Part shown: positions 18,636 through 51,894 of the stretch, piece by piece
Position numbering within the stretch: the stretch's first letter is position 1
How the letters are laid out: every line of letters starts with the position of its first letter
Virus record (IMG/VR): IMGVR_UViG_2029527005_000013
DNA: 64,000 nucleotides
Strand: one strand, 5' to 3'
Source: a virus
The notes under the pieces: model-generated
What the model was told of the DNA's origin: nothing
Seen by the model: only the letters and a program-made list of their open reading frames with translations
Database searches by the model: none
Position numbers and translations under genes: made by a program

Positions 18636-19061
18636 ATGAGCAATACAAGAAAAGTTTACCCAGCAAAGCCTGAACCACGTGCCACACGTGCCCCAAGATA
18701 CGGGAGCGAGGGATGGCCCAAGGTCTCACCAGAGGAGCTTGCGATAGCTCGTGAGGTATTCTGGGACATTTTCATGGTCAAACACGAAGGTGACTGCTTC
18801 AATATGTTTGCAGCTAAACTCGGATCAGACCGTAACCGGGCGAAGCAGGTGTACTACTTCATCCTGTACCAGAAGGGCCTTATGCAGTACCAGCAGAACC
18901 AAGAGCGGAAAATTCGCGGTAAGTTGGTGACGAGAATCAAAAAGTACACAGAGTTCCTCGATAATCCCGAAACGATCTACCAGATCATGTGCCGGGCAGA
19001 GGACGAGGTGGAAGAGGATGATCGTAAACGTGCAATCACGGAGGCCCTGAAGAAGAAATGA
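18636..19061 (+). CDS. hypothetical protein
   Basis: GAGGAG RBS before ATG 18636. Confidence 0.75.
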   Translation: MSNTRKVYPAKPEPRATRAPRYGSEGWPKVSPEELAIAREVFWDIFMVKHEGDCFNMFAAKLGSDRNRAKQVYYFILYQKGLMQYQQNQERKIRGKLVTRIKKYTEFLDNPETIYQIMCRAEDEVEEDDRKRAITEALKKK

Positions 19062-19210
19062 TGATCGCACCTGAAACTTTTGTTATATTGTTCATTCTGG
19101 TTGCAATGGCGGGTTCCCGGTTCTATTATTGGACCGTGGTATTCTCCCTTGTGTATATTCTCGGAATCATGGTCTCCACGGAGATCTCCAAACTGATGGG
19201 GTGGTTATGA
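19058..19210 (+). CDS. small membrane protein (50 aa)
   Basis: Translated by hand; two hydrophobic helices; ATGA overlaps at both ends. Confidence 0.65.
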   Translation: MMIAPETFVILFILVAMAGSRFYYWTVVFSLVYILGIMVSTEISKLMGWL

Positions 19211-19503
19211 AGAAGTGGATTCTTATTGCGGCACTGGCCCTCGTTGGGTGCGATGAGGAGAAGGCCGGGGACATGTATACGGACCGTCCAACCTTGGCAC
19301 CAGACGAAGTGGTGGCCCTTCACAACGTGTGCAAGAGCCAACCTAACTATGACACTAGTTGGGTTGAAACTCGTACCCGTGGGGAGGCCAAGGGGGTTAT
19401 CTGCCGATACCGGGATGCAAACTACACCCGTGGTGTATCAACAACCTTCCGTCTCGATGCGGAAGACCTGAAAAAGAAACTTGATGCGAGGAAAGCAAAA
19501 TGA
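19207..19503 (+). CDS. lipoprotein
   Basis: MKKWILIAALALVG-C signal peptide II with lipobox. Confidence 0.8.
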   Translation: MKKWILIAALALVGCDEEKAGDMYTDRPTLAPDEVVALHNVCKSQPNYDTSWVETRTRGEAKGVICRYRDANYTRGVSTTFRLDAEDLKKKLDARKAK

Positions 19504-19850
19504 TAGACTTCATCTGGTCAACGTTTATGGCGCTGGCGTGGTTAGTGGTGGCGATATGGATGATCCCAACGATCATCGCATACAAACGTGACCACCGGAA
19601 CAAGACGGTGATCTTCGTTATGTCGATTATCATCTCTGTTCTGCCGACCACGGCGTTTATGGTCATCGGATACCTTATTCTCTTGGTATTCTCCATGTAC
19701 AGGTCACCAGAGGTGATGGTCGTGCAGGGTCCACGTGGAGAGCCGGGTGCGCCGGGCCGTGACGGAAGGGACGGAAAGGACGGTCGTAGAGGTAAGGATG
19801 CCGACGAAATCCCACTGTCTAAAAGCGGTGTCGTGAAGCCAAGAAAATAA
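19500..19850 (+). CDS. superinfection-immunity (T4 Imm-like) membrane protein with a short collagen-like tail
   Basis: IPTIIAYKRDHRNKTVIFVMSI matches the Imm-family pattern; GPRGEPGAPGRDGRDGKDGRRGKD. Confidence 0.65.
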   Translation: MIDFIWSTFMALAWLVVAIWMIPTIIAYKRDHRNKTVIFVMSIIISVLPTTAFMVIGYLILLVFSMYRSPEVMVVQGPRGEPGAPGRDGRDGKDGRRGKDADEIPLSKSGVVKPRK

Positions 19851-19878
19851 TTGATTTTGTACCGGGGCCATGTATAAT
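19851..19878 (+). promoter_or_regulatory. sigma70-type promoter
   Basis: TTGATT-N16-TATAAT. Confidence 0.7.
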
Positions 19879-19906
19879 GGTCCCACACTAAACTGATGAG
19901 GAAGAC

Positions 19907-20287
19907 ATGATGAGCATTTTCGATAACACTTTTGTTGAGCCGGGCTGGGAATGTGTTCAGGCAACAAAGAACATCACCCGTTCGGATGAGTACAAATACG
20001 TTAACCTGAACCTGATGTACGAATTGGACCACCGTCAAGTTGAAGTAGGGGCTACATACGCCATCAACGTCGGCGGTCAAATCTCTCGTGAGGTTCCGGT
20101 GAAGATGCTCATCAAGATGTACGATTTGTCAGGTGACCAAACGGTCAGTGATCCGGTGGTTCTCTTCAAGCGTTCACTCCGTGCTTTCCGCCCGGAAGAA
20201 ATGACTGAAGAGATGCTGAAGGATATTAAAATGGCGGACTTGATGTTCGATGAAGCGAACAAAGATGTCCAACGTGTTTATTTATAA
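19907..20287 (+). CDS. hypothetical protein
   Basis: GAGGA RBS; 126 aa. Confidence 0.75.
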   Translation: MMSIFDNTFVEPGWECVQATKNITRSDEYKYVNLNLMYELDHRQVEVGATYAINVGGQISREVPVKMLIKMYDLSGDQTVSDPVVLFKRSLRAFRPEEMTEEMLKDIKMADLMFDEANKDVQRVYL

Positions 20288-20298
20288 GGAGAGTTGAA

Positions 20299-20484
20299 AT
20301 GGGTAAGTTACTCGCAGGTCTGGGTCTGGGTTACATCGCCGTGTTCTTCGCATGTGTTGCTGCGTGGATCACTCACGTGGTTGTCTGCATTAAGGCTGCA
20401 TCTTGGATCTTCCTGCTCGCAGGCGCGATCTTCGCCCCAGTCGGCGTTATCCACGGCATCGGTGTCTGGTTCGGCGTTTTCTAA
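20299..20484 (+). CDS. small membrane protein
   Basis: AAGGAG RBS; two TM helices. Confidence 0.75.
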   Translation: MGKLLAGLGLGYIAVFFACVAAWITHVVVCIKAASWIFLLAGAIFAPVGVIHGIGVWFGVF

Positions 20485-20564
20485 GTTGCAATTCGCAGTA
20501 AATGTGGTAACCTGTTGTTCTGGCCTCAATAATGGGGCCTGTTAATCCCTCGAAGGAGAAGTGC

Positions 20565-21779
20565 ATGTCTGAAGAAGTTAAGGTAATCACCGCTGTCTAT
20601 GATGCTGTCAATGACACCAACATTCACATTGCGATGGGTACAATCGAGCGTATTAACCTGAAACGCATTAACGCAGACGGTAGCGCCAAGGTGACCAACA
20701 TCACCAAAGGCCCTAACGCCGGGAAGTCGATCAACGCAACTCACCGCGCTTCCATCCTGCTGAAGAACGGTAACGATCAGGTTTGGGTCAGCTTCGGCAC
20801 TCACGAAGTTAAGAACCTGGCCTACGAACATCAGTACCAGATCAAGGTCGATGACAAATGGACCGATCTGAAAGAAGGTATGGTGATTCGTGTTCCGGTT
20901 CAGATCCGCACCTGGAAAGATGCGAAGACTGGTGAAGACCGCTCTGCGCCGGAAGGCAAGAAAGCGAAGATCCAGATCAAAGACGCATCCGGTGCCCGTG
21001 AGTCGAACAAGCCCGCAGGAGGCTCTCAGCAGTCCTCTGGCGCGTCCAACGCTTCGGGTGGTAAAACCACTAAGGTTTACGGAGAAATCGTCTCTGTGGA
21101 TGGCCTACACGCTCTGGTGAAGGATGAACAGGGCAATGAAGTAAACTGTGTTCTGACCAAAGAGCAGTTCGACCAAATTCAGGTTGGCGGTCGCTTGGCA
21201 GGCCAGCGCGGTGAAGATGGAAACATCGTCTCCGGCTTCAAGGCTTATGGTCCAAAAGGTTCCGCTCCGGCGGGCGGCGGTTCTCGCAGTGGTGGCAAGA
21301 AAGACAACTCCGGTATGGAAACGGGCCATGCTCTGAACGGTGCCCTGAACCTGCGTCGTAGCGGTCTGACAGTCCCTCCGGTTGTTGAAGTCGCCAAAGT
21401 GGTTCATGATGTCACCAAGCATCTGAAGCTGGATGCGGCTCAGGACCCGGCGAACAAAGGTATGTCGGATTACGATCTGGGTGCGATGGTTGGTCATGCG
21501 GTACTGAACGCAACCCGTGACATTCAGGTTGGCGATAACGACAACCCGGAAGAGATCACTGGCAAGCTGTTGGCTTACGCTCGTGAACTGATGAGCACTG
21601 TGGTGCCGGGCGTAGCAGCTTATGTCAAAGGTGAAAGCCTCCAGACCGCTGCCGACTCCAAGCCTGATCCGGTGCTGGAGCCGAAGGTTGATGATGCCGT
21701 TCAGCAGCAAGTTCAGTCCAATGGTCATATTGACATGACCCCGGAAGCTATGGACTTCGACGACGACATCCCGTTCTAA
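20565..21779 (+). CDS. ssb: single-stranded DNA-binding protein (putative)
   Basis: Beta-rich domains separated by Gly/Ser linkers; C-terminus MDFDDDIPF; AAGGAG RBS before ATG 20565. Confidence 0.7.
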   Translation: MSEEVKVITAVYDAVNDTNIHIAMGTIERINLKRINADGSAKVTNITKGPNAGKSINATHRASILLKNGNDQVWVSFGTHEVKNLAYEHQYQIKVDDKWTDLKEGMVIRVPVQIRTWKDAKTGEDRSAPEGKKAKIQIKDASGARESNKPAGGSQQSSGASNASGGKTTKVYGEIVSVDGLHALVKDEQGNEVNCVLTKEQFDQIQVGGRLAGQRGEDGNIVSGFKAYGPKGSAPAGGGSRSGGKKDNSGMETGHALNGALNLRRSGLTVPPVVEVAKVVHDVTKHLKLDAAQDPANKGMSDYDLGAMVGHAVLNATRDIQVGDNDNPEEITGKLLAYARELMSTVVPGVAAYVKGESLQTAADSKPDPVLEPKVDDAVQQQVQSNGHIDMTPEAMDFDDDIPF

Positions 21780-21796
21780 GTTGTTGTAATAAAAGA

Positions 21797-21824
21797 AAAG
21801 GCACCCGATTGGGTGCCTTTTTTA
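21797..21824. terminator. bidirectional rho-independent terminator at the convergence of the two gene blocks
   Basis: A-tract, GGCACCC-GATT-GGGTGCC, T-tract. Confidence 0.9.
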
Positions 21825-23126
21825 TTAGCCGAAATCCGGCATCTCGTATGGTCCACTAAGGTTGTACCCAGGGCCGTAGTCTTGGTTTCCGCCGTTGGCT
21901 GGGAAGCCGGGAGGATACATGGCTGGGTTAGAGACTCCCAAGCCAGTAAAGTACAACTTTCCGGTTTTGGTCAGCAACAAGTTCCTTTGAGAACGGTCGC
22001 CGCCTGCATGAGGGACAACAATATCGAGACCGCCTTCGTCGATAAGGATCTGAGCAATATTGGTCAGCGCATTACAGTTCTTGGAGTAAGTGGTTCCGTT
22101 TGCCAATGTGTAAACAGACCCTTGGTCACCTGTTGACTGGTGTACCCCAAGGTTTTCGTTCTCCACGAAGACTTGGTGACGGATGTACCAGTTTCGGTCG
22201 AGGTTCGTCGCATTAAACCCATACGCCTCTCCCGGAAGAACCTTGGAAAACGGAGGGATTGTTGATGCCTTCATCACGTTGGTGGTTGATGATCCAGAGG
22301 AAGAGTTACCAAGACCTGTGTTTTGTGTCCCGGATACCCACCACGTCCCGTCCTCTTTCCTCGCAACGATCAGGGTGTGCCTCTCTGTTGACGACCCTTG
22401 GTTTGTCAACCGACGAGATTGCAGGATATACGCCTCGTCATAACCCGCAGTACAATCCCTTACCTGTTTCCATCTTGTAGTCAACCAGCTTGTCCCGGTG
22501 GCCCCTGTTCCATCCATCGCAAATCCCATCCCGTTATACCCTTGGGCATACACCGCCCCCGTGGTTGAGATAAGGATCTTGTTCTCTGCGTCGTTGGAAA
22601 CAAAGAGGTATTTGAACAAAGTCCCTGCGGGAATGCCGAGGGATGGGGTCGGAACCATCTCTGTGAACACATCCCCGGAATATGTGTAGACTTTTCCGTC
22701 AGAACAGAGTACCATCCCCTGAGAGAATGAGATCATGTTGTCAAAGACGCTGTATCCGTTCAGGTTGTACCAAGCGGGATCGATGAGACGCCAATCATTC
22801 TGGGTATCTGCATCCTGTGACCCGGGGAATCCGTTGTACTGTCCGGTGGAGTAGAAAGATGATCCTTTTCGGATAAGGAACCCATTGGACACGCCAGGGT
22901 AGATCTGATCGACGCCTGTGTTTGTGAGTGTCCACCCTGAAGGGGCCACATTTGCCCCGTTGGCTCTCCCCAATCCGTTACCAGATGCGCCGCCCATAAC
23001 ATACAGGTCACCATTGTGACCGAGGGCAAAGTAGCACTGGGTCCCTGAGCCAAGGAATTGCTTCAGACCTTTTTCGACTGGTGGCGTACCGCCCCCGGCA
23101 AAGTTGATAATCGCAAATGGATACAT
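21825..23126 (-). CDS. tail-fibre-associated receptor-binding protein with RCC1/BLIP-II-like repeats
   Basis: FALGHNGDLYVMGG..GNGLG, ILISTTGAVYAQGYNG and LLLTKTGKLYFTG repeats; follows the long fibre gene. Confidence 0.7.
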   Translation of the reverse strand: MYPFAIINFAGGGTPPVEKGLKQFLGSGTQCYFALGHNGDLYVMGGASGNGLGRANGANVAPSGWTLTNTGVDQIYPGVSNGFLIRKGSSFYSTGQYNGFPGSQDADTQNDWRLIDPAWYNLNGYSVFDNMISFSQGMVLCSDGKVYTYSGDVFTEMVPTPSLGIPAGTLFKYLFVSNDAENKILISTTGAVYAQGYNGMGFAMDGTGATGTSWLTTRWKQVRDCTAGYDEAYILQSRRLTNQGSSTERHTLIVARKEDGTWWVSGTQNTGLGNSSSGSSTTNVMKASTIPPFSKVLPGEAYGFNATNLDRNWYIRHQVFVENENLGVHQSTGDQGSVYTLANGTTYSKNCNALTNIAQILIDEGGLDIVVPHAGGDRSQRNLLLTKTGKLYFTGLGVSNPAMYPPGFPANGGNQDYGPGYNLSGPYEMPDFG

Positions 23127-39436: not shown

Positions 39437-40852
39437 TTACACTCCTACAGCAGAAGAGGTCATCGGTGCCTGAGCGTTAGTGCCCTGGCCCGCCGGGCGA
39501 TCCAGAACAACGGCAGCGCGGATCTTGACGTAATGCAGGGAGTTGTTGTACACAATCTCCACCTTCACGTCACGCAGGATACGTGCAGCGAGGTCATTCG
39601 TCGGGATCTGGGCACGTTTCGGAATGACGATCGTCGGGTCATAGGACACTTTGTTTTCAGTGTCGTAACCAGTCAGGATGCCACCGTTACGGATACCGAT
39701 GTTGATCGGGTTGTTCATCAGCACAGACTTCAGAACCGGAAGGTCTTCGTCGCTCATCTTCATAGACAGGCCCATGTCAGAACGGCGCTTCATGTACGCG
39801 AACACGGATTCTTCCATACGGAACTTAACCCAGTGGGAGAAGCGAATCACGTCAACATACTGACCAGAAGAAGTCTTGCCTTCGATGTAGCTGTTGGTGC
39901 CGTACATCGCACGATAGATGTTGGCGTTACGAGACCATGCGTTTGAACGCTGGGTGTCGGTCAGATTGCTTGGCTTCATGCCGGGCATGGTCTTCAGGTG
40001 CAGGGAGTCGCCGTAAGACGGGTCGTTTGCAGCCATCGCGCCGATAACGCAACCTTCGGTGAAGCTAACATCGGAGTCAGCGTCAGAGGTGCCCAGTGAG
40101 TTGTAGCTCAGAGCTTTCAGCGTGTCGAACACGGAAGCGCTTGAGTTCTCAGCGGCGTATGCGTCAGCATCAGAACTGTTGTAGATGTGCAGCTTATAGT
40201 TGGCCTTCGCAAACTCAGCCGCCGCTACAATATCCGCATCAGAACGAGCTTCGTGTGACACGAAGTACCAGTTATGGTTCTCGCCAACAACCTGCGGCAG
40301 TACAGTCGCAACGGTCTCTGCTGAGTCGTTCACGATCTTGTAGTTGCCAGCGCCTTTACCAACGCTCAGGATCTCTGCCGATTGCAGAGTCACAACAGTG
40401 CCAGTGGCAGTTGCGGTAACTTTCCCTTGCAGGTCAGCGTCATCGGTGATACCCTGCGCCAGCGCCGTAGCGATCTGAGCCGGGGTGTTGCCAGGCAGAA
40501 TGTTAACTTTAACAACTTTGACCATGCGGTTCAAGGTCAGGTTAACGACAACCTGTTCGGTGTTAGTGGTTCCGGTGAAATCCACTTTGGAATCACCCAG
40601 TGCCATACGTCCGATACCAACACGCTGCGGGGCGAAGTTCCCTGCGAATGCGTTAGTTGCGAACTGGTAGGCCGGGGAACCAACGGCAAAACCATCAGCA
40701 ACCATCCCGTCAGTGGACACGTAGAAGCGAACACGCTCTGGGAAGTTATTGTGGATTGCCAGGAACATCGGGGTTTCAAAGCCAACGGTGTCGATTGGTT
40801 GAGTGCCAAGGCTAACCTCAACGTCAACTACCTTGTCTTGATATTCAGCCAT
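39437..40852 (-). CDS. tail sheath protein
   Basis: DUF3383-type sheath pattern (KTMPG...GQYVDVIRFSHW...); ATG at 40852. Confidence 0.92.
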   Translation of the reverse strand: MAEYQDKVVDVEVSLGTQPIDTVGFETPMFLAIHNNFPERVRFYVSTDGMVADGFAVGSPAYQFATNAFAGNFAPQRVGIGRMALGDSKVDFTGTTNTEQVVVNLTLNRMVKVVKVNILPGNTPAQIATALAQGITDDADLQGKVTATATGTVVTLQSAEILSVGKGAGNYKIVNDSAETVATVLPQVVGENHNWYFVSHEARSDADIVAAAEFAKANYKLHIYNSSDADAYAAENSSASVFDTLKALSYNSLGTSDADSDVSFTEGCVIGAMAANDPSYGDSLHLKTMPGMKPSNLTDTQRSNAWSRNANIYRAMYGTNSYIEGKTSSGQYVDVIRFSHWVKFRMEESVFAYMKRRSDMGLSMKMSDEDLPVLKSVLMNNPINIGIRNGGILTGYDTENKVSYDPTIVIPKRAQIPTNDLAARILRDVKVEIVYNNSLHYVKIRAAVVLDRPAGQGTNAQAPMTSSAVGV

Positions 40853-40912: not shown

Positions 40913-41635
40913 TTACGCCCCATGATTGTCACTGATAAGCGCTGGCCTATCAATAACCGGAGTTTCCATGCAAACCGTGACCACGTTGTCGTGGTAGGTG
41001 ATCGGAGGGTTTGGTTTCGGTGGGAGACCTTCGTCATCGCCGCCCGGCTTCACACCCTTATCAATCTCCGCATCAATCTCACCAACGTTCTCGAACGGGT
41101 TGCCCAGAGAGTCCTGTGCAGTGATCCCGATGATCACGTGTTCCAGATCCTCAAACACACCAACGTCTTTCTCTACGAAAGTGGCGTTGAACGTCACAAG
41201 GATTCGTGCCCGGTTCTCGTACATCTGCTGGTTCAAAGGAACTCGCAAACGAGCGATTGACGAGCACGTGGAATAAGCGTATGGTGAGCCAGTGGGGAAG
41301 TATTGCTCTCTCAGGTAGGGCAGGCCGAAAGCCTGATGAACTCGGGAGAGTGCCCAATGGGGTTTCCCACGGTAAGCTGTGAGGGTGTAGGAGGCTTGGT
41401 AGTTGTGCGCCACATGGGTGACGCCTTCTGCATCCACAACCTCGTTTGTTGCCCAGTCGAGAGGGTCAAGCAATGTAAGGTCAACGAGGACGAACGGCCC
41501 TTCCACTTTAGGAATGGTTTCGTCAGCTTCAACGACTTTGTAGCCCGTTACGTCTTTAACAAGACGACCGACTGCCCTTGTCAGGTTGCCCATCACGACA
41601 TCAGAATTGGTAAAGTCAAGAGGGAAGTCCATCAC
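40913..41635 (-). CDS. tail terminator/neck protein
   Basis: Position before the sheath gene; YENRARILVTF motif. Confidence 0.75.
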   Translation of the reverse strand: MMDFPLDFTNSDVVMGNLTRAVGRLVKDVTGYKVVEADETIPKVEGPFVLVDLTLLDPLDWATNEVVDAEGVTHVAHNYQASYTLTAYRGKPHWALSRVHQAFGLPYLREQYFPTGSPYAYSTCSSIARLRVPLNQQMYENRARILVTFNATFVEKDVGVFEDLEHVIIGITAQDSLGNPFENVGEIDAEIDKGVKPGGDDEGLPPKPNPPITYHDNVVTVCMETPVIDRPALISDNHGA

Positions 41636-43225: not shown

Positions 43226-45652
43226 TTATGCAGCTTTTGTTGCCCACAGGCGGATTACCGTGGCATCACGGGAGCCGTAGAACTTGACGGTATAAACATC
43301 ACGAAGCAGCATGACGTTCATTTCGACCTGAACCTTGCCCGGGTCTCCGTCCAACATCGGCATCCGAATGTAGGAACTGCTTGAGTTCATGAACGACTCC
43401 CCTGCCATACCTTTAATGGCGGCAGTGTTGACGTTCAGTTGAGAGTAGTTATATGCTACCAACTCAGAACTCGAATTGGAGCTTCCAATCTCCAAGTACC
43501 CTTGGGTTCCGTACATGATGGCATTGATGAAGATGGTGTTGTTCAAATACAACTTAACCCCAGTCTTCATGTTGCCAGTGGCTGTCAAGAGACCGCTCCC
43601 CGCAGGACCGACAGGCCCTTGAGGTCCAGTCGCACCCGTGGCACCACGTGCTCCAGTATCTCCCTTAGCACCAGGGAGACCAGTGGCACCCTGAGACCCC
43701 GTAAGTCCTTGTGGACCTCGATCTCCAGTATCTCCCTTTGGACCCTGAGCGCCTTGAGGACCTTGTGCCCCCTGTGCTCCAGTGGCACCCTTCGCGCCTG
43801 TGTCCCCTTTCGGCCCAACCCCACCAGGGAGGCCGATGTCTCCTTTAGGGCCTTGGATTCCTTGAGGCCCGGCATCGCCCTTATCGCCCTTGGCCCCGGC
43901 TGGTCCGGTAGCCCCAGACTCGCCCTGAAGTCCGCGAGGACCCTGGTCGCCTTTGGCACCAACAGCACCCGCTGCCCCGGTATCGCCTTTAGGTCCTTGC
44001 AGGCCACGAGGACCTTCTGCCCCAGGGAGACCTTGGTCACCCTTGGCTCCGGCAGGTCCTTGAGGTCCTTGTGCGCCAGTGTCGCCCTTAGTGCCAGATG
44101 CTCCGGTATCTCCTTTCGGTCCGACCGCTCCGTCTGCGCCCTTGGCACCAGTCAGGCCCTGGTCTCCTTTCGGGCCAGCAGGTCCTTCGATACCGCGAGA
44201 ACCTGTATCACCCTTGGCCCCGGTATCACCTTTGTCTCCCTTATCACCCTTGGAACCATGTGCTGCCATGATTGCCCAGTAAGCATTGATTCGAGAGTCA
44301 CCTGCGCCAGCACCCTCTTCAGGGGGGATTCCTGTGGAGACTTGGATAGAGAAGTAGGTTGCCCCGTTGTAGGCAACAGCATCGTTGACGGCATAGGTGG
44401 CAGAGTCGTTGTATTGACCTTTCCACACAAGACCAGAAGCCCCGGTAGGGCCAACGTCGCCCTTGTCGCCTTTGTCTCCCTTGGCTCCCTTCATCGTCTC
44501 CAGGAAATCTTCGAAAGTCCCTTCAAAGCCTTCCCACTTGATGGCGGATTCGTACATATCCAAACCAGCAGGTCCCGGGAACCCTTGACCACCCATGAGG
44601 CCCTGCTCACCCTTTTCCCCTTGGATGCCTCGTGGACCTTCAGGTCCTACCTCTCCGGTGTCTCCTTTGTCTCCTTTTGCCCCAGCAGGTCCCTGAAGTC
44701 CAGTAGCACCACGAGGACCCTCTGAACCGACAGGTCCCTGAATGCCCTCTTCCCCCTGCGGGCCAACAGGACCTTGAATGCCTTGCTCACCACGAGGGCC
44801 AGCAACGCCAGAAACCCCTTGGTCCCCCTTGGCTCCGGCTGGGCCTACGTCACCCTTTTCTCCTTTAGGGCCTTGGTCACCTTTGATCCCTTGAGGACCT
44901 TCTACTCCCGCTGGACCTTGGATTCCTGCTTCACCACGTGATCCGGCGTCACCTTTAGGGCCAGCCGGGCCTACCGGGCCGATGTCTCCTTTCGGACCTT
45001 CAAGGCCCTGTTCTCCACGTGACCCATTTGCGCCCGCCGGGCCGTCAGGGCCTCGGGGACCCATTGGACCTTCAAGTCCTTGGTCGCCTTTAGGGCCTTG
45101 CAGTCCTTCAACGCCCTGCGCACCTTTATCACCTTTTGGTCCTGCGGGACCTACATCCCCAGGGGCACCTTGGGAACCTGCCTCCCCTTGTGGGCCAACA
45201 GCACCTTGCGCTGCCAGAAGTGCCCAGTTGGATGATGAGGATGGATCACCAGTTGGAGAGATACCTGTGCTATCCGTAAGACTGAAGTAACTCGCGCCCT
45301 CATGCCCTACGGCGTCATCTTTGGCATAGGTTACCGAGTCAGAATACTGACCTTTCCACGTCAAGCCGACCGGGCCGACAGGTCCTGCGGGACCGATGTC
45401 ACCTTTTGGCCCTGTGGCTCCGGTGGCCCCTGCTGCACCGTCAGATCCGCTCGTACCGTTATCACCTTTAGGCCCTCGTGGACCCTGCGGACCTTCAGGT
45501 CCTTGTGGACCCGGGTCACCTTTAGGACCTTGACCACCGCTACCGCCTGTGCCGATCTCCTCGAACGGAATCATCCGTTCGCCTTTCAGATCATACAGAG
45601 CATAGCCGTAGTATACACCATTCTGTTCGCCAGAAACACCTTTCAAGTTCAT
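43226..45652 (-). CDS. collagen-like fibre protein with two CBM5/12-like inserts
   Basis: Long Gly-X-Y runs; two WKGQY...TYA.ND.V.Y.GA.Y...W inserts; globular C-terminus. Confidence 0.88.
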
Positions 45653-45695: not shown

Positions 45696-46070
45696 TTAAC
45701 CAGTGGTGACGATGTTATACTTGACTTCTTCCGTGGTGCTATCAGACATCTGGAAGGTCAGTGTAACCTCTGTGCCATTCACAGATGCGGAGATAGAAGT
45801 GATCCCCCGACCAGCAGCGCCCGCTGCCCCGGTGTCACCTTTAGCCCCGGCTGCACCTGCGGCACCCGTATCGCCTTTATCACCTTTTGGACCTTGAGGT
45901 CCGGCAGGCCCGGTGTCGCCTTTGTCCCCCTTATCGCCCTTCGGGCCGGGAGTTCCTGCACCACCGCCACCTTCGAACAGTTCAGTCAGGGTCTTGACTT
46001 CACCTGTCTCTTGGTTCATAATCTGGTAACCAGTCAGGGTTCCCAGTGATGCTCCGCCAATTGCAGCCAT
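45696..46070 (-). CDS. short collagen-like fibre protein
   Basis: Gly-X-Y run followed by GRGITSISASVNGTEVTLTFQMSD. Confidence 0.85.
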   Translation of the reverse strand: MAAIGGASLGTLTGYQIMNQETGEVKTLTELFEGGGGAGTPGPKGDKGDKGDTGPAGPQGPKGDKGDTGAAGAAGAKGDTGAAGAAGRGITSISASVNGTEVTLTFQMSDSTTEEVKYNIVTTG

Positions 46071-46071
46071 G

Positions 46072-46719
46072 TTATTCTCCTACGAAAGTGCTTGGGACTT
46101 CAGGAATGTCGGTGATGAGGGTTGACTCATACACAGACTTGATGTAAGTTAGCAAAGTTTGCTGGACTTTCCCGGTTGCAACGGAGATAGCATCAATCTT
46201 CTCAATTGCGTCGGCAGACGGCAGAGACAAGATTGAATAATCTGCTTTACGAACGAGAATGGTTTCATCCGGGTTAGCCACAGCGTAATCCCGGGTAGTT
46301 TTAAGGTTTACCAGTTCACGTGGCTCCACGGAGAAGATTTCTCCCGCCACCTGGACGCCGGACGCCAGATCAGAACTGAACACCTGGTATGCACGAATGC
46401 GATGGTCTTCTTGGGCGCGGGCCAAGTTCTCTGCCACTTCTTCTGGAGAGAAGTCACGAACGGTCCACGTTTTGTACCAGAAGCCATCTTCGTGGAGTTC
46501 CGGTTTACCTTCCTTGACGACATCACCGACTGGAACTTCAGAGTCATAAACCTTGAAGTAATTCCAGATCTCTGCCATCTCGTATTCCCATACGAAGTCG
46601 CCGATTGAGACGTTGGTGTGTTCTTTCAGGAAGTCGCTAAGATAGACGGGATACTTCATGTCGGACATACGAATCATCGGAGTCCAAGTGAAGATCTTGC
46701 TGGTTGGATCAATTGCCAT
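46072..46719 (-). CDS. fibre assembly/chaperone-like protein
   Basis: GDVVKEGKPELHEDGFWYKTWTVRDFSPEE motif; directly after the large collagen fibre gene; GGAG RBS. Confidence 0.65.
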   Translation of the reverse strand: MAIDPTSKIFTWTPMIRMSDMKYPVYLSDFLKEHTNVSIGDFVWEYEMAEIWNYFKVYDSEVPVGDVVKEGKPELHEDGFWYKTWTVRDFSPEEVAENLARAQEDHRIRAYQVFSSDLASGVQVAGEIFSVEPRELVNLKTTRDYAVANPDETILVRKADYSILSLPSADAIEKIDAISVATGKVQQTLLTYIKSVYESTLITDIPEVPSTFVGE

Positions 46720-46759
46720 TTTATCTCCTTGAGAAGGGGACCGAAGTCCCCTTTTACTA

Positions 46760-49700
46760 TTAGTCAACAGTCATCGCCTGAACACCCGTCAGATCCGTGC
46801 CGTCCCAGAAGAACGTCAGGATAGTACGGACTGTTCCGAGAGCCGGAGGGGTCCCGTTTGACCAAGCCATCGGAGAAGGCCACGTCATAGCGCCACCCTT
46901 ACCTTTGAACTTGACGACAACCGTCATCGCACGACCAGCCGGGAGGTTGGCAATGGTGATGGTTTTAGCCGTGGTTCCGTCAACTTCGAACACGTTGGCA
47001 ACCGCAGCGTCCAGTGCGCCAGTGGCGGACATAACACGCAGGTCATAACGATCCAGTTTCACCCACGCACCGTTAGAACGGACGTAGTAGCCAGAATCCC
47101 CTGGGGCCTCGGTTACTTCAACCAGTGACCAGTCACCGTCGATACGGGCGTACTGCTTGCCGTCCTTCGGTGAGTCATAGACGTTGCCGCCGCCCATGTA
47201 GCCCATCGGTGCCCAAGTGGTTGCGTTAGTCTTGCGGAAGAACTGCAACGTTGAGGAGTTCAGGAAGTAGTCGCCTACACGACCATCAGCAGGACCCGGA
47301 TCACGGTCAAACACGATCCACAGGCTACCTTGGTCACCCTTATCACCTTTCACACCCTGCTGGCCTTGTGGGCCTGGGTCACCTTGTGGTCCTACTGGAC
47401 CAACTGGACCTTGGATACGTCCGAGGTTTTCGTAGGCAGAACCTGTCCATCCCCAGAAGTCGCCTTGGATCAGGTAACCCTGTCCGAGAGTACCAGTTGA
47501 CGGCAGTTCAGAAGAGTTCTCGAATTTACCCAAGATCTCCACGCCCGGGCCGATGTCCCCTTGAGGACCCTGCGGACCAGTTGAACCAACATCACCTTTA
47601 GGACCTTCAGGACCTTGCTCACCCTGCGGGCCGTCTGGGCCAGCCGGGCCGACAGGACCTACGTCACCCTGATCACCCTTATCGCCCTTCGGTCCTTGCG
47701 GGCCTTCAGGTCCAACTTCCCCTTGTGGTCCACGGGTAGTGCCCATGTTAATCCACGCAGTTCCGTTCCAAGAGTAACCTACACCAGTGTCCAGCGCCAC
47801 ACGGAAGTCACCAACGGTGTTTCCAGATGCAGGCAGAGCAGCTTCGTTGGCAACGGCTTCTTTCGGGGTCAGGCCCGCACCGTTGTTACCAGTGTCGCCT
47901 TTGTCTCCCTTATCGCCCTTGTCGCCTTTCTCACCTTGAGGTCCGGTGTTACCGCGAGCCATTCCGGTGTTAACCCACTGCAAGCCGTCCCATGCGAAAC
48001 CTTTACCTTCGTCAACGGTGGTCCAGAAATCACCAACTTCGTTGTTTTCGGTAGGCAGGTTTGCTTCAGCAGGAACAGTGCCTTTTGGATTCAGGCCAGT
48101 GCCTTTATCGCCCTGGTCTCCCTTCGGTCCCTGCGGACCTTCAGCCCCGGTATCGCCTTTAGGACCAGCGTCACCTTTGTCGCCCTTGGCTCCGGCTGGG
48201 CCTACAGCACCAGTTTCACCTTTAGGGCCACGGACTGGGCCAGTGTTCTGCCAAGCAGTGCCGTTGTACACGTACAGATCGTCACCGATCAGCCATGCGT
48301 CACCGATGGCAGCGCCTGACGGCAGTTCACCTTCGTTGGCCTTGGAGCCGAGGATGGTCAGGCCAGCGCCGACATCGCCTTTCTCACCTTGCAGGCCAGT
48401 AGCACCACGAGGACCTTGCGGACCTACGTCGCCTTTTGGACCTTTGATGGAAGCCAGGTACTCAGTCAGAGAGCCTTGGAAGCCGTCTTCAACCGCCAGT
48501 GCGTAGTTGTCCTTTCCGACAGGACCTTGCTCACCAGTGTCGCCTTTGTCACCTTTCGGCCCGGTAGCTCCGGTGTCACCTTTCGGACCTTGGAAGGAGC
48601 CGAGGTTTTCCCAGTTACCTGCACCGTCAGATACCCAAACGTTGGTGTCGATCAGGTACGCATCACCCGCATCAGCGCCGGACGGAAGACTTGCTTCGTC
48701 AGCTACTTTGCCGAGGATGTTGATGGCGTTGGCGTTCTTACCGTCTACACCCGGATCACCTTTGTCACCCTTGTCGCCTTTCGGCCCTTGAGCACCAACC
48801 AGTGAGTTCAGGAAGTCAACCTGAGAACCCTGATGACCGTTAGCCAGCCACACTTGGTACGCAGATTTACCTTCAGGGCCAACCTGTCCAACAGTCTGCC
48901 ATTTGTCGGTATCACCCGTCCAAACGTACATCTTGTCGTTGATGATGTAGCAATCACCAGGTTTGTTGCCTTCGTCAGGCAGGAACGATGGATCAGTGAA
49001 CGCACCCAGAACTTGCAGACCGATACCGTCAGCCCCTTTCAGGGAGTTCAGCCACTCGTCTACGGTCCCGATGAAGCCAGCATTCTCAGCCACTTCATAC
49101 GCAGAGAAACCTTCAGGCCCCGCGAAGTTACCGATGTTCTTCCACTGCTTGACGTTGGAGTCATTCACAACAGTCCAGAAGTTCTGACCGATCACGTAAG
49201 TGTCGCCCAGTTCCATCTCTGCAACTGACGGAAGCTGATCTTCACCGTCCAGCTTGTCGATAACGTTGATGCCGATACCCGCCGGGCCTTTCGGACCTGC
49301 TTCACCACGAGCACCCTGTGCGCCCGCCGGGCCAGTATCACCCTTGTCGCCCTTCGGACCTGCTTCGCCCGTTTCGCCTTTCTCGCCCTGCGGACCTTCC
49401 GGGCCTTCTGGGCCTGCCGGGCCGACTGGACCTTCAGGACCCTGTGGGCCTGCGTCACCTTTGTCGCCTTTGTCACCTTTTACAGTGGCAACGAAGATCC
49501 CGTCTGCCTTGACTTCGATCTTGTTGTCTGGGTCAGCAGAGATTTTGGTCTCTTGAGGACGGACATACAGAGCGCCCTGACGGATTTCCAGGGTATTGTC
49601 TTGGGCAACAGAGACAGGGACAGACAGACCAGCAGCGCCGACCTTCAGTGCGTTACCTGCATCTGGATCAACGATCACATCGATCTGAGTCTTGGACTTG

Positions 49701-50113
49701 CCAGTGGCGTCGGCCTTGATCTCGATGGTTTTCTTAGGGGACGTGGTGGACACGTTCACCGGGTCGGAGTATACTCCTTCCAGCGCCGGGTTGCCAGCGT
49801 TAGTCGCCTCTTCCGCCGTGATGTAACGGACGGTGTTGCCGTCTTTGGCAGAAACCTTGGTGTCGCTTCCAGCAACATACAGACCCTGCTCGTTCTGAGA
49901 GCTAACCACTTGCAGGCGGTTACCCTGACGGCGGGAGATGTTGATGTTGGATTGAAGAGGGGCAGATTCAGTACCGTCACCCGTCAGGATGGTAGATACG
50001 GTATCTTGGGTTTTGATACCCGTGAAGTTTCCACCTGAACCACCGGAAGTGGTCGCAGACGGGTCAGGGACAGTCACGAGGACTTCCACGACTTTATCTT
50101 GATATTCAGCCAT
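46760..50113 (-). CDS. large collagen-like fibre with repeated globular knuckles and a C-terminal beta-sandwich
   Basis: 1117 aa; Gly-X-Y runs alternate with LP....GD.Y.I....W..G..W.N.G domains and three SAY...GF.G...EWL.SLKG helical inserts; N-terminus matches the sheath. Confidence 0.9.
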   Translation of the reverse strand: MAEYQDKVVEVLVTVPDPSATTSGGSGGNFTGIKTQDTVSTILTGDGTESAPLQSNINISRRQGNRLQVVSSQNEQGLYVAGSDTKVSAKDGNTVRYITAEEATNAGNPALEGVYSDPVNVSTTSPKKTIEIKADATGKSKTQIDVIVDPDAGNALKVGAAGLSVPVSVAQDNTLEIRQGALYVRPQETKISADPDNKIEVKADGIFVATVKGDKGDKGDAGPQGPEGPVGPAGPEGPEGPQGEKGETGEAGPKGDKGDTGPAGAQGARGEAGPKGPAGIGINVIDKLDGEDQLPSVAEMELGDTYVIGQNFWTVVNDSNVKQWKNIGNFAGPEGFSAYEVAENAGFIGTVDEWLNSLKGADGIGLQVLGAFTDPSFLPDEGNKPGDCYIINDKMYVWTGDTDKWQTVGQVGPEGKSAYQVWLANGHQGSQVDFLNSLVGAQGPKGDKGDKGDPGVDGKNANAINILGKVADEASLPSGADAGDAYLIDTNVWVSDGAGNWENLGSFQGPKGDTGATGPKGDKGDTGEQGPVGKDNYALAVEDGFQGSLTEYLASIKGPKGDVGPQGPRGATGLQGEKGDVGAGLTILGSKANEGELPSGAAIGDAWLIGDDLYVYNGTAWQNTGPVRGPKGETGAVGPAGAKGDKGDAGPKGDTGAEGPQGPKGDQGDKGTGLNPKGTVPAEANLPTENNEVGDFWTTVDEGKGFAWDGLQWVNTGMARGNTGPQGEKGDKGDKGDKGDTGNNGAGLTPKEAVANEAALPASGNTVGDFRVALDTGVGYSWNGTAWINMGTTRGPQGEVGPEGPQGPKGDKGDQGDVGPVGPAGPDGPQGEQGPEGPKGDVGSTGPQGPQGDIGPGVEILGKFENSSELPSTGTLGQGYLIQGDFWGWTGSAYENLGRIQGPVGPVGPQGDPGPQGQQGVKGDKGDQGSLWIVFDRDPGPADGRVGDYFLNSSTLQFFRKTNATTWAPMGYMGGGNVYDSPKDGKQYARIDGDWSLVEVTEAPGDSGYYVRSNGAWVKLDRYDLRVMSATGALDAAVANVFEVDGTTAKTITIANLPAGRAMTVVVKFKGKGGAMTWPSPMAWSNGTPPALGTVRTILTFFWDGTDLTGVQAMTVD

Positions 50114-50167: not shown

Positions 50168-50788
50168 TTACAGTGCAGCCTTCAGATCTTCCAACATTGC
50201 GTCAAAAGTCTTGGCCTTGCTCAGGGAGATTTCCAGAGTCAGAGCGAATGCTTCCAGTGCAGCTTTAGCGGCAGCTTTCTTGCTGTCGTCACGCAGTGCT
50301 TCGGCCCGCGCCAGGATTGCAGCTTTGTCTTCGTCAGAACGACCAGAAACTACCTCGGCCTTTTCTTCGATGACTTCTTCAACTTCTTCCTTGACTTCCG
50401 GTGCAGGTTCGATTACAGTTGTCTGTACCAGATTAGCCAGAGGTGTTTCTTCAGGGGCATCCGCCGGGATAACTGCTTCACGGATGGCCTTGATTTCTGC
50501 CACGGTCTCTTTGAACTTAACAGGGCACTTCGGCTTCTCGTCGAAGAATACCAAGTAAGCATGTCCCTTCTGAACGGAGGCGATCGTGTTGATGCCCAAG
50601 GCGGTCATGCGCTCAATCTGTTCGAGGAACTCGTAGAGATTCCGCCCCATCACCAGTTCATTGTCATAGGAATACAAGAACGGTGGCAGTCGGCCTGATG
50701 CGTCCACATCCAGCTTCGGCAGGTATTCGCCGAAGAACTTCAGCATGTGGTATTCGCTCTGGAAAACTTCCAAATGCGGTTGTGCCAT
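50168..50788 (-). CDS. hypothetical protein with C-terminal HeH/LEM-like helical motif
   Basis: LEAFALTLEISLSKAKTFDAMLEDL; AGGAG RBS. Confidence 0.75.
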   Translation of the reverse strand: MAQPHLEVFQSEYHMLKFFGEYLPKLDVDASGRLPPFLYSYDNELVMGRNLYEFLEQIERMTALGINTIASVQKGHAYLVFFDEKPKCPVKFKETVAEIKAIREAVIPADAPEETPLANLVQTTVIEPAPEVKEEVEEVIEEKAEVVSGRSDEDKAAILARAEALRDDSKKAAAKAALEAFALTLEISLSKAKTFDAMLEDLKAAL

Positions 50789-50898: not shown

Positions 50899-51894
50899 TT
50901 ATGCGAACTTACCAGTTGACTTAACAACCAACTCTGGGCGGTTGTTGACGGTCAGGAAGGAAGTCTCAGATTCGACTTTCGCTTCACGCAGGTACTGAGA
51001 CTCTTTGAAGAACACGTACAGGTCTTGAGCAACCTGGTTCGCGTCACGCAGAGTGTCGCTTGGAGCGTAGTACATCTCGAACATGCGAGTGATACCACGT
51101 GGGAAGATGTACGCTTCACCCGGGGCGATGTTACCGGAGATGTCTTCGATGAACAGGATGTTCTTGTGTTCGAAGATACGGTTGTTCGCGTTACCACCCA
51201 GACGACGACGCAGCATTTCCTGAGTCGATGGGTACTGAGAGTAAGCGCCAGTAACCTGCGGGTGCTGGATCAGCGCGGTGAACCACTTACGGGATGCCAG
51301 AACAACGATCTCGTAGTTGTCGCCATTGTCGCCAGCCCAGTCGATGATGTGAGCACGAGCTTCTGCTTCCAGAACTTCGATTGGGTCAGTGCCCAACTTG
51401 GTGAAGTCAACGTCAGCAGTCTGCTGGGTTGCGCCCCACACATCGTAGTAGTCGTACTGGCATACTTCGTCGTCTGGAGACCAAGACTGGCCCTTCAGAG
51501 CGGCGTACATTGCCTTAGACTTCAGGATTGCGTGGCTACGACGCAGACGGGCCATGATCTTCGCAACTTCAACATCAACGCTCGCCGGGGCGTTCTCGGT
51601 GCCGAACTCACGGAAGTTCTGAATGTCAGCACGATCGATTGAACGGTCCAGTGGGAAGAACGGGATGTTCAGGTTGATGATCTTTTTGCGGTTGTTGCCC
51701 AGGTGCTGACGAACGCCACCACGCTGAACCGCCTTGATCTCACCTGCACCGTCGTCTTCACGCTCGATACGAGCGGTAGTGGTACGACCATAGTGTTCAG
51801 TGAACAGGTTCATGGACTGGAGCAGAGTGTCCACGCGAGGCATGGTCTGGATCAGGCCAGTGTAGTCCAGGATCTGAAAATCGCCATTGATCAT
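50899..51894 (-). CDS. major capsid protein (lambda gpE-like, HK97 fold)
   Basis: 331 aa; IPFFPLDRSI..ADIQNFR; ESETSFLTVNNRPELVV; highly biased codons. Confidence 0.92.
   Translation of the reverse strand: MINGDFQILDYTGLIQTMPRVDTLLQSMNLFTEHYGRTTTARIEREDDGAGEIKAVQRGGVRQHLGNNRKKIINLNIPFFPLDRSIDRADIQNFREFGTENAPASVDVEVAKIMARLRRSHAILKSKAMYAALKGQSWSPDDEVCQYDYYDVWGATQQTADVDFTKLGTDPIEVLEAEARAHIIDWAGDNGDNYEIVVLASRKWFTALIQHPQVTGAYSQYPSTQEMLRRRLGGNANNRIFEHKNILFIEDISGNIAPGEAYIFPRGITRMFEMYYAPSDTLRDANQVAQDLYVFFKESQYLREAKVESETSFLTVNNRPELVVKSTGKFA

Follow-up and report, generated by a model that had tools for sequence, protein, structure and literature searches.

Besides the sheath subunits themselves, terminators or caps and initiators are known to donate strands into the sheath handshake. 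The closest described system is the tail of phage phiTE, in which cryo-electron microscopy (cryo-EM) assigned the N-terminal strand of the sheath protein (E3-L15) to S4 of a four-stranded hinge sheet, and in which rotation of S4 drives sheath contraction (PMC11972413). In the same tail the C-terminal extension of the terminator contributes three strands, two of them to ring 1 (as S3 and S4) and one in place of S4 between rings 1 and 2; the sheath arm of ring 1 is pinned in an alternate conformation, and the sheath initiator serves the baseplate ring (PMC11972413). The present analysis concerns a 64,000-nucleotide stretch of viral DNA (IMG/VR record IMGVR_UViG_2029527005_000013, hereafter the window) encoding a giant collagen-like fibre whose N-terminus copies the S4 arm of the sheath and has been maintained throughout the subfamily.

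The window covers part of the genome of a Certrevirus-like myophage, a new relative that shares about 80% nucleotide identity with POP15, phiTE, CR3 and similar phages. All the genes discussed lie on the minus strand, and the two central ones, with their N-terminal segments, are the following:

46760-50113, minus strand: collagen-like virion fibre of 1117 amino acids (aa), homologue of phiTE pTE215, CB7_10 and CR3 gp008
50069-50113, minus strand: fibre residues 1-15, copy of the sheath N-terminal arm (S4 hinge strand) with the core Y4-x-D6-K7-V8-V9
39437-40852, minus strand: tail sheath of 471 aa (PHROG 205; PDB 9cb9_A, the phiTE sheath, E = 1.9e-270), followed by the tube gene
40808-40852, minus strand: sheath residues 1-15, N-terminal arm, equivalent of the phiTE S4 strand E3-L15

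The sheath shares 86% identity with that of phiTE, and the name "sheath N-terminal arm", given to this segment in an earlier reading of the letters alone (the sequence-only reading), is correct, the segment being the phiTE S4. The fibre matches the Pfam family Collagen (PF01391, E = 2e-34) and PHROG 3904, and is homologous over its full length to annotated fibres of the Vequintavirinae. It is a genuine virion component, because its homologue CB7_10 yielded 39 unique peptides in mass spectrometry (MS) of virions (PMC7344957).

The fibre and sheath N-termini

The fibre open reading frame (ORF) begins MAEYQDKVVEVLVTVP and the sheath ORF begins MAEYQDKVVDVEVSLG; both translations start with MAEYQDKVV and continue with x-V-x-V. 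The opening 17 nucleotides of the two genes are identical (ATGGCTGAATATCAAGA), and past them the codons differ synonymously between fibre and sheath (GAT/GAC, AAA/AAG, GTC/GTA, GTG/GTT), so that both the shared peptide with its continuing valine pattern and the short nucleotide identity described in the sequence-only reading are borne out by the ORF translations and by the two gene starts. A Shine-Dalgarno sequence (GGAG/GAGG) precedes each start by 8-9 nucleotides, and the upstream DNA is otherwise unrelated.

The specificity of the match was evaluated with a hidden Markov model (HMM) built from eight sheath arms alone; the search space was the six-frame translation of the window, 1167 segments with 88,408 aa in all. 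The sheath itself was recovered with E = 2.6e-8 and the fibre N-terminus, the sole non-self match, with E = 6e-4, while the remainder was noise (E at least 5). In an ungapped BLOSUM62 scan the fibre arm scored 49 (z = 8.1) against a noise maximum of 24. The resemblance of the two N-termini is far beyond chance; in particular, the fibre arm conforms to the sheath-family signature Y-x-D-K-V/P-V-D/E-V-x-V, and in both proteins a beta-prone segment of about 13 residues (3-15) ends at a break, P16 in the fibre and G16 in the sheath. The domains D1, D2 and D4 of a sheath of the PHROG 205/DUF3383 type were not found in the fibre; only residues 1-15 are sheath-like and the rest is collagen fibre, which rules out that the fibre is a sheath paralogue. 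The N-terminus of the FFH2 adaptor (MAWYEDEEII) is similar by eye and fails the motif.

The 17-nucleotide identity reflects an older residue state together with one synonymous coincidence and has no extra meaning, since two metagenomic fibres (L017 and L018) also begin MAEYQDKVV with GCA, rather than GCT, as the codon of Ala2. Recent gene conversion as its source is ruled out by the occurrence of MAEYQ in distant fibres and by the retention of paralogue-specific residues. Likewise, the identity of the two arms at nine of nine residues in the window is a detail of this lineage.

Conservation of the arm across lineages

Fourteen fibre/sheath pairs were read from Vequintavirinae-type phages and represent seven distinct arm pairings:

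phiTE, CR3, CR9, CB7 and POP15: fibre MAQYEDKVVEVLV, sheath MAEYQDKVVDVEV
SSBI34: fibre MEYQDKVVEVLV, sheath MAYNDKVVEVEV
W70 and UPEC06: fibre MAEYNDKVVEAFV, sheath MAYEDKVVDVEV
Kashira, ABPH49 and ChuuTotoro: fibre MLNEYEDKVVEVIV, sheath MAYNDKPVDVVV
Seunavirus SSE121 (4MG and L024 alike): fibre MADYNDKVVNAE, sheath MAYNDKVVDVTV
metagenome locus L029: fibre MAYEDKVVEVLV, sheath MAYQDKVVDVTV
metagenome locus L031 (non-collagen homologue): fibre MADYEEKIVEVNV, sheath MATYIDKPVEVTV

A near-invariant Y-x-D-K-V-V core is present in both proteins across all 14 pairs. In a codon table of 13 fibres and 13 sheaths the residues Y, D, K, V and V are invariant and are encoded by varying codons (TAT/TAC, GAT/GAC, AAA/AAG and all GTN), and synonymous turnover with a conserved arm recurs in further metagenome pairs. 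Because the core residues remain constant while synonymous codons differ, selection acts on the peptide rather than on the DNA, as had been proposed from the two gene starts of the window.

Among the eight fibres of alignment A1 the invariant columns include Y4, D6, K7, V8 and V9; thus, the arm supplies 5 of the 16 invariant columns of an N-terminal domain whose identity elsewhere falls to 29%. Substitutions appear in two more distant fibres, with D6 replaced by E together with V8 by I in L031 and K7 by I in P0058. On the sheath side the arm is near-invariant among the 115 sheath homologues listed.

The two arms also differ in a consistent manner: in the codon table E10 and a hydrophobic residue at position 12 characterize 12 of the 13 fibres, while D10 is found in 12 of the 13 sheaths and E or T at position 12 in 10 of them. 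Since fibre and sheath hold these paralogue-specific residues, the arms have been kept separately over a long time and not homogenised. The fibre was not found in the capsid-to-sheath block of L030 and L032, which belong to more distant sheath lineages with different arms, and neither the fibre nor its DUF4376-like neighbour was found in rV5-like phages, Mydovirus and phi92.

Proposed docking of the fibre arm

A phiTE-type virion already contains a proven substitute for S4 that is not a sheath subunit and that resembles the arm, namely the terminator. In the window this protein and its candidate strand are located as follows:

40913-41632, minus strand: tail terminator with long C-terminal extension (Pfam Phage_tail_terminator_9; PDB 9cc7_F, the phiTE tail terminator, E = 3.9e-123), its start probably the ATG one codon past a GTG at 41635
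40964-41002, minus strand: terminator residues 212-224 (ITYHDNVVTVCME), where a regular expression for the arm motif finds a weaker copy within the extension

The loose motif Y-x-D-x-[VIP]-[VIA]-x-[VIA] has exactly three matches in the six frames of the window, namely the N-termini of fibre and sheath and residues 212-224 of the terminator; about one chance match is expected there, so the terminator match is supported by its position and by the structural report, not by statistics. The motif recurs in the long terminators of phiTE (IVYHDAIAQV), CR9 (IVYNDKIVSV), CB7 (ITYHDQVVQV) and W70 (FTYIDTIVTV). Residues 212-224 form the most C-terminal beta-prone segment of the extension, and we infer that they correspond to the strand replacing S4 in phiTE, the exact residue assignment included. 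Short terminators (Seunavirus, SSBI34, Kashira type, L029 and L031) lack this segment and their phages carry the fibre nonetheless; single-strand, hairpin and three-strand terminators all coexist with fibres, so that fibre presence does not track terminator type. As a separate observation, the terminator extension may have originated when a duplicate of the sheath 5' end became fused with the terminator, because it holds the arm-like motif and the gene ends only 60 nucleotides upstream of the sheath start.

A possible parallel was found in the Salmonella phage BP63 (Rosemountvirus). When its whole genome is scanned with its sheath arm (MPLNVNQIVNVQL), the highest-scoring non-self match is to the N-terminus of gp31 (MSLPLNEVVDVQF), equally far from the initial Met. 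This 709-aa Ig-like string protein is encoded just upstream of the sheath gp32 (18793-20922 and 21009-22148 of locus L026). The score of 28 against a noise of 26 leaves a small margin, and the chance of the match falling exactly on a protein N-terminus is roughly estimated at 0.007; gp31 may thus be a second appendage bearing a sheath-arm tag, independent of the fibre.

For the fibre of the window, the interpretation we favour, with an even chance of being correct, is that its arm is a beta-strand anchor that mimics the sheath arm and would fasten the fibre to the tail. The arm of about 15 residues would add itself as a strand to the surface on which a sheath arm normally lies, or next to that surface, and would in this way tie the fibre to the contractile tail. 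Beyond the arm the fibre consists of a Pro, a Gly/Ser-rich tether and a trimeric shaft, then of collagen segments and foldon-like motifs and, at its distal end, of a beta domain; the DUF4376-like neighbour is a putative assembly or tip partner. The sequence-only reading had instead placed the arm in vacant slots of the sheath end rings. This conflicts with phiTE, where terminator and initiator fill the end sheets and no vacant slot is described, and this version is unlikely for the genus, being contradicted by the only solved relative. As no empty S4 slot is reported for phiTE, the arm could instead dock as a fifth strand where the sheet edge is exposed in the rings capped by the terminator, take the place of sheath arms at low occupancy along the tail, or bind close to the baseplate, where an unmodelled third fibre is seen in phiTE.

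The identity of that third fibre bears on the proposed anchor. The fibres modelled in phiTE are pTE236 (short) and pTE241 (long), and an unmodelled "third putative fiber" was proposed by the authors as the contact of the long fibre bending toward the capsid (PMC11972413). The fibre homologue pTE215 is not named in the phiTE cryo-EM paper (PMC11972413), and the PDB has neither an entry for it nor a chain matching its 210 N-terminal residues. RefSeq annotates only pTE215, pTE236 and pTE241 as tail fibres of phiTE; since two of the three are modelled, the third putative fiber is, by elimination, most likely pTE215.

Several points weigh against a sheath-mimicking anchor. The phiTE maps at 3.3 A were reported with complete four-stranded hinge sheets in every ring and without fibre, and the report mentions no unassigned strand at the neck (PMC11972413). 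The related FV3 sheath still forms polysheaths after removal of 9-25 N-terminal residues (PMC6357053); because of this the sheath arm is not essential to every lattice contact, and a foreign strand, or no strand at all, may be compatible with the lattice. A fibre anchored in the hinge sheets must thread outward, since these belong to the inner layer of the sheath. The fibre gene belongs to the head module, where it adjoins capsid-fibre and capsid-decoration genes. The resemblance of the terminator motif to the arm is statistically weak by HMM (1.3 bits in the window), the exception being the YNDKIVSV of CR9 (8.9 bits). Finally, the changes at the variable arm position (Q/E/N) and the K/P/I changes are not mirrored between a fibre and its own sheath, as in the Kashira-type sheath with K-P against a fibre with K-V, the P0058 fibre with D-I against the P0099 sheath with K-P, and the L031 fibre with E-E-K-I. 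The co-variation of the two N-termini, put forward in the sequence-only reading as a check, thus discriminates little: the near-invariant core is shared by both proteins, and the few variable positions do not co-vary. Absent co-variation is expected if one conserved socket constrains both arms, and provides no positive support.

A stronger form of the anchor appears doubtful. In this form fibre arms would replace sheath N-arms within the hinge sheets, at defined rings or at a low occupancy hidden by helical averaging; the fibres, held at the strand with the largest rotation during contraction, would be mechanically coupled to the sheath state and released, re-oriented or tensioned on firing, and the arm would be a general sheath-arm tag, used also on the Ig-like appendages of Rosemountvirus. 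The coupling of the fibre to contraction is, in itself, speculation.

Among the alternatives to a hinge-sheet anchor, the one that best survives, itself unlikely, is that fibre arm and sheath arm have a third binding partner in common, outside the hinge sheet, either the neck site of the alternate ring-1 arm or an assembly factor that handles arms before polymerisation. The sheath arm of phiTE has at least two binding modes (S4 and the pinned alternate in ring 1), no hinge slot is free in that tail, and the fibre gene stands beside adaptor, head-completion and terminator genes; however, the pinned neck sites are already filled by six sheath arms, no such partner emerged, and no extra acceptor of sheath-initiator type was found by Pfam among the tail proteins of the window. 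The 215-aa neighbour of the fibre is ruled out as an acceptor with a sheath-initiator-like fold, as it looks DUF4376-like and of fibre-assembly type.

It is less probable again that the fibre belongs to the head or neck, where its shaft domain or another protein would hold it, and that the arm has no docking role, being a relic left by an ancient 5' duplication or simply a sequence favoured at the N-terminus or translation start. The fibre gene does lie in the head-decoration block, where the adjacent Pagoda-type protein and the second collagen fibre share another N-terminal motif of capsid type, and fibre and sheath are both abundant late proteins. A relic would nevertheless decay, yet the arm is the best-conserved block of a fibre N-terminal domain with 29-50% identity elsewhere, and the nucleotides vary, the DNA upstream of the two genes is unrelated and the motif is in no other late protein. 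A role confined to assembly is very unlikely: the fibre would occupy the end of the growing sheath, or free subunits, only transiently as a cap or competitor, and the terminator strands would then displace it, which agrees with the exposure of S3/S4 acceptor sites at the growing head-proximal sheath end until the terminator binds (T4 and pyocin models) and with the extra S4-like strand gained by Certrevirus and W70-type terminators, but the fibre is retained in purified virions and its presence is independent of terminator type.

If the proposed strand anchor is correct, it would explain how the phiTE/CR3/PVP-SE1 group mounts a major virion fibre that has yet to be placed, would link fibre position to sheath contraction and would offer a portable tag of 15 residues by which cargo or new receptor-binding fibres could be attached to contractile tails and tailocins. 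The receptor of phiTE and CR3 is the flagellum (PMC7344957).

Fibre architecture, neighbouring genes and known systems

Beyond the arm, the fibre is organized in the following segments:

50027-50068, minus strand: residues 16-29, Pro and then a 13-residue Gly/Ser-rich linker between arm and shaft, gapped and length-variable in alignment A1
49484-50026, minus strand: residues 30-210, beta-rich proximal shaft domain, 29-85% identity across lineages
47339-49483, minus strand: residues 211-925, collagen triple-helix segments with small Trp/Tyr-rich knob modules between them
47054-47170, minus strand: two tandem foldon-like motifs (residues 982-998 and 1004-1020) after the last collagen run
46763-47053, minus strand: C-terminal all-beta domain (PHROG 19200)

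This layout, from arm to beta domain, fits a tethered anchor. The collagen region comprises eight Gly-X-Y runs totalling 103 triplets, five stand-alone knob modules of 44-48 aa and further ones inside a 158-aa spacer; the Trp/Tyr-rich modules, spread over residues 282-901, are possibly carbohydrate-binding beads, and the second collagen fibre has a weak match to CBM_5_12. The foldon-like motifs, with the pattern P-x-D-G/S ... Y-x-R-x-D/N-G-x-W, are probably the trimer registration element; the region scores 18.3 bits against Pfam Fibritin_C (E = 0.0026), below the family cut-off of 21, and gives a weak Foldseek match to T4 fibritin (1avy_C). No PDB match at E <= 0.001 was found for the AlphaFold2 model of the C-terminal domain (mean predicted local distance difference test, pLDDT, 67.7), and its likeness to the C-terminus of the long tail fibre is unsupported (BLASTP E = 0.09). 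A syntenic 1074-aa homologue on a metagenome scaffold (184-3408 of L031) keeps the arm and the C-terminal domain with no recorded collagen match, and for this reason the shaft of the family appears to be exchangeable.

The neighbouring genes include:

50899-51894, minus strand: major capsid protein
50168-50788, minus strand: Phage_Inh_N-type protein
46072-46719, minus strand: DUF4376-like protein of 215 aa, homologue of pTE216/CB7_11
45696-46070, minus strand: collagen/Pagoda-type protein of 124 aa, homologue of phiTE pTE217
43226-45652, minus strand: second collagen fibre of 808 aa

The DUF4376-like protein lies in a 231-aa ORF (46072-46767, minus strand) whose true start is probably Met17 (46719); it has a language-model feature score of 0.94 to DUF4376 clusters and no Pfam match. 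It adjoins the fibre in Certrevirus, Seunavirus, W70 and L031, it is absent from fibre-less lineages, and an unrelated-looking gene occupies its position in Kashira-type phages and L029; this distribution points to a probable fibre-assembly or fibre-tip partner. The phiTE pTE217 is the "Pagoda" protein at the capsid hexamer centre (PMC11972413). Its 124-aa homologue and the 808-aa second fibre have a common N-terminal motif distinct from the arm, as do CR3 gp010 and gp011, which suggests that a short and a long fibre may use the same capsid hexamer site. Elsewhere in the window, a 433-aa protein (21825-23126, minus strand), homologue of pTE242/CB7_37, has no Pfam family or PDB match and was detected by MS in CB7 virions; it is another virion component of this phage group without placement.

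In the literature searched, no paper was found in which a fibre or appendage is reported to donate a strand to the sheath handshake, and the papers on phi92, Bas63 and RBPseg describe no fibre anchored by a sheath strand. The sheath N-arms themselves (phiTE S4, the phi92 gp130 N-arm and the handshake of R-type pyocins and the type VI secretion system) resemble the fibre arm in their position at the extreme N-terminus, in a strand of about 13 residues before a break and in the invariant core. The sheath arm, however, runs on into domain D4, whereas the fibre arm runs into a flexible tether and a trimeric shaft, and a trimeric fibre presents three arms to a six-fold sheath lattice.

T4 fibritin (wac) is likewise a trimeric fibre encoded near neck genes; its C-terminal foldon has candidate counterparts here, below the Pfam cut-off, and a contact with the long tail fibres is a possible parallel, since in phiTE the long tail fibre is proposed to touch the third fibre. 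In contrast, fibritin has a coiled-coil shaft and its own N-terminal domain on gp13/gp14, with no collagen and no copy of the sheath arm, while the fibre described here has a beta-rich and collagen shaft in place of the coiled coil.

BP63 gp31 shares with the fibre an appendage N-terminus resembling its own sheath arm at the same Met offset, and differs in appendage type, in sheath subfamily and in the marginal score. The terminator extension of phiTE (pTE221, PDB 9cc7_F) is, like the fibre, part of a non-sheath virion protein with the motif Y-x-D-x-V/I-V-x-V, and it donates strands to the hinge sheet and replaces S4; it differs in being the C-terminal extension of a ring protein, with a role solved by cryo-EM and a much weaker arm match. 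The direct homologues of the fibre are the collagen-like fibres of the Vequintavirinae (PHROG 3904: PVP-SE1/SSE121 gp019, 4MG, CB7_10 and pTE215), alike in synteny, arm and C-terminal domain, from which the fibre of the window shows no difference in kind, its arm only happening to equal that of its own sheath at all nine residues.

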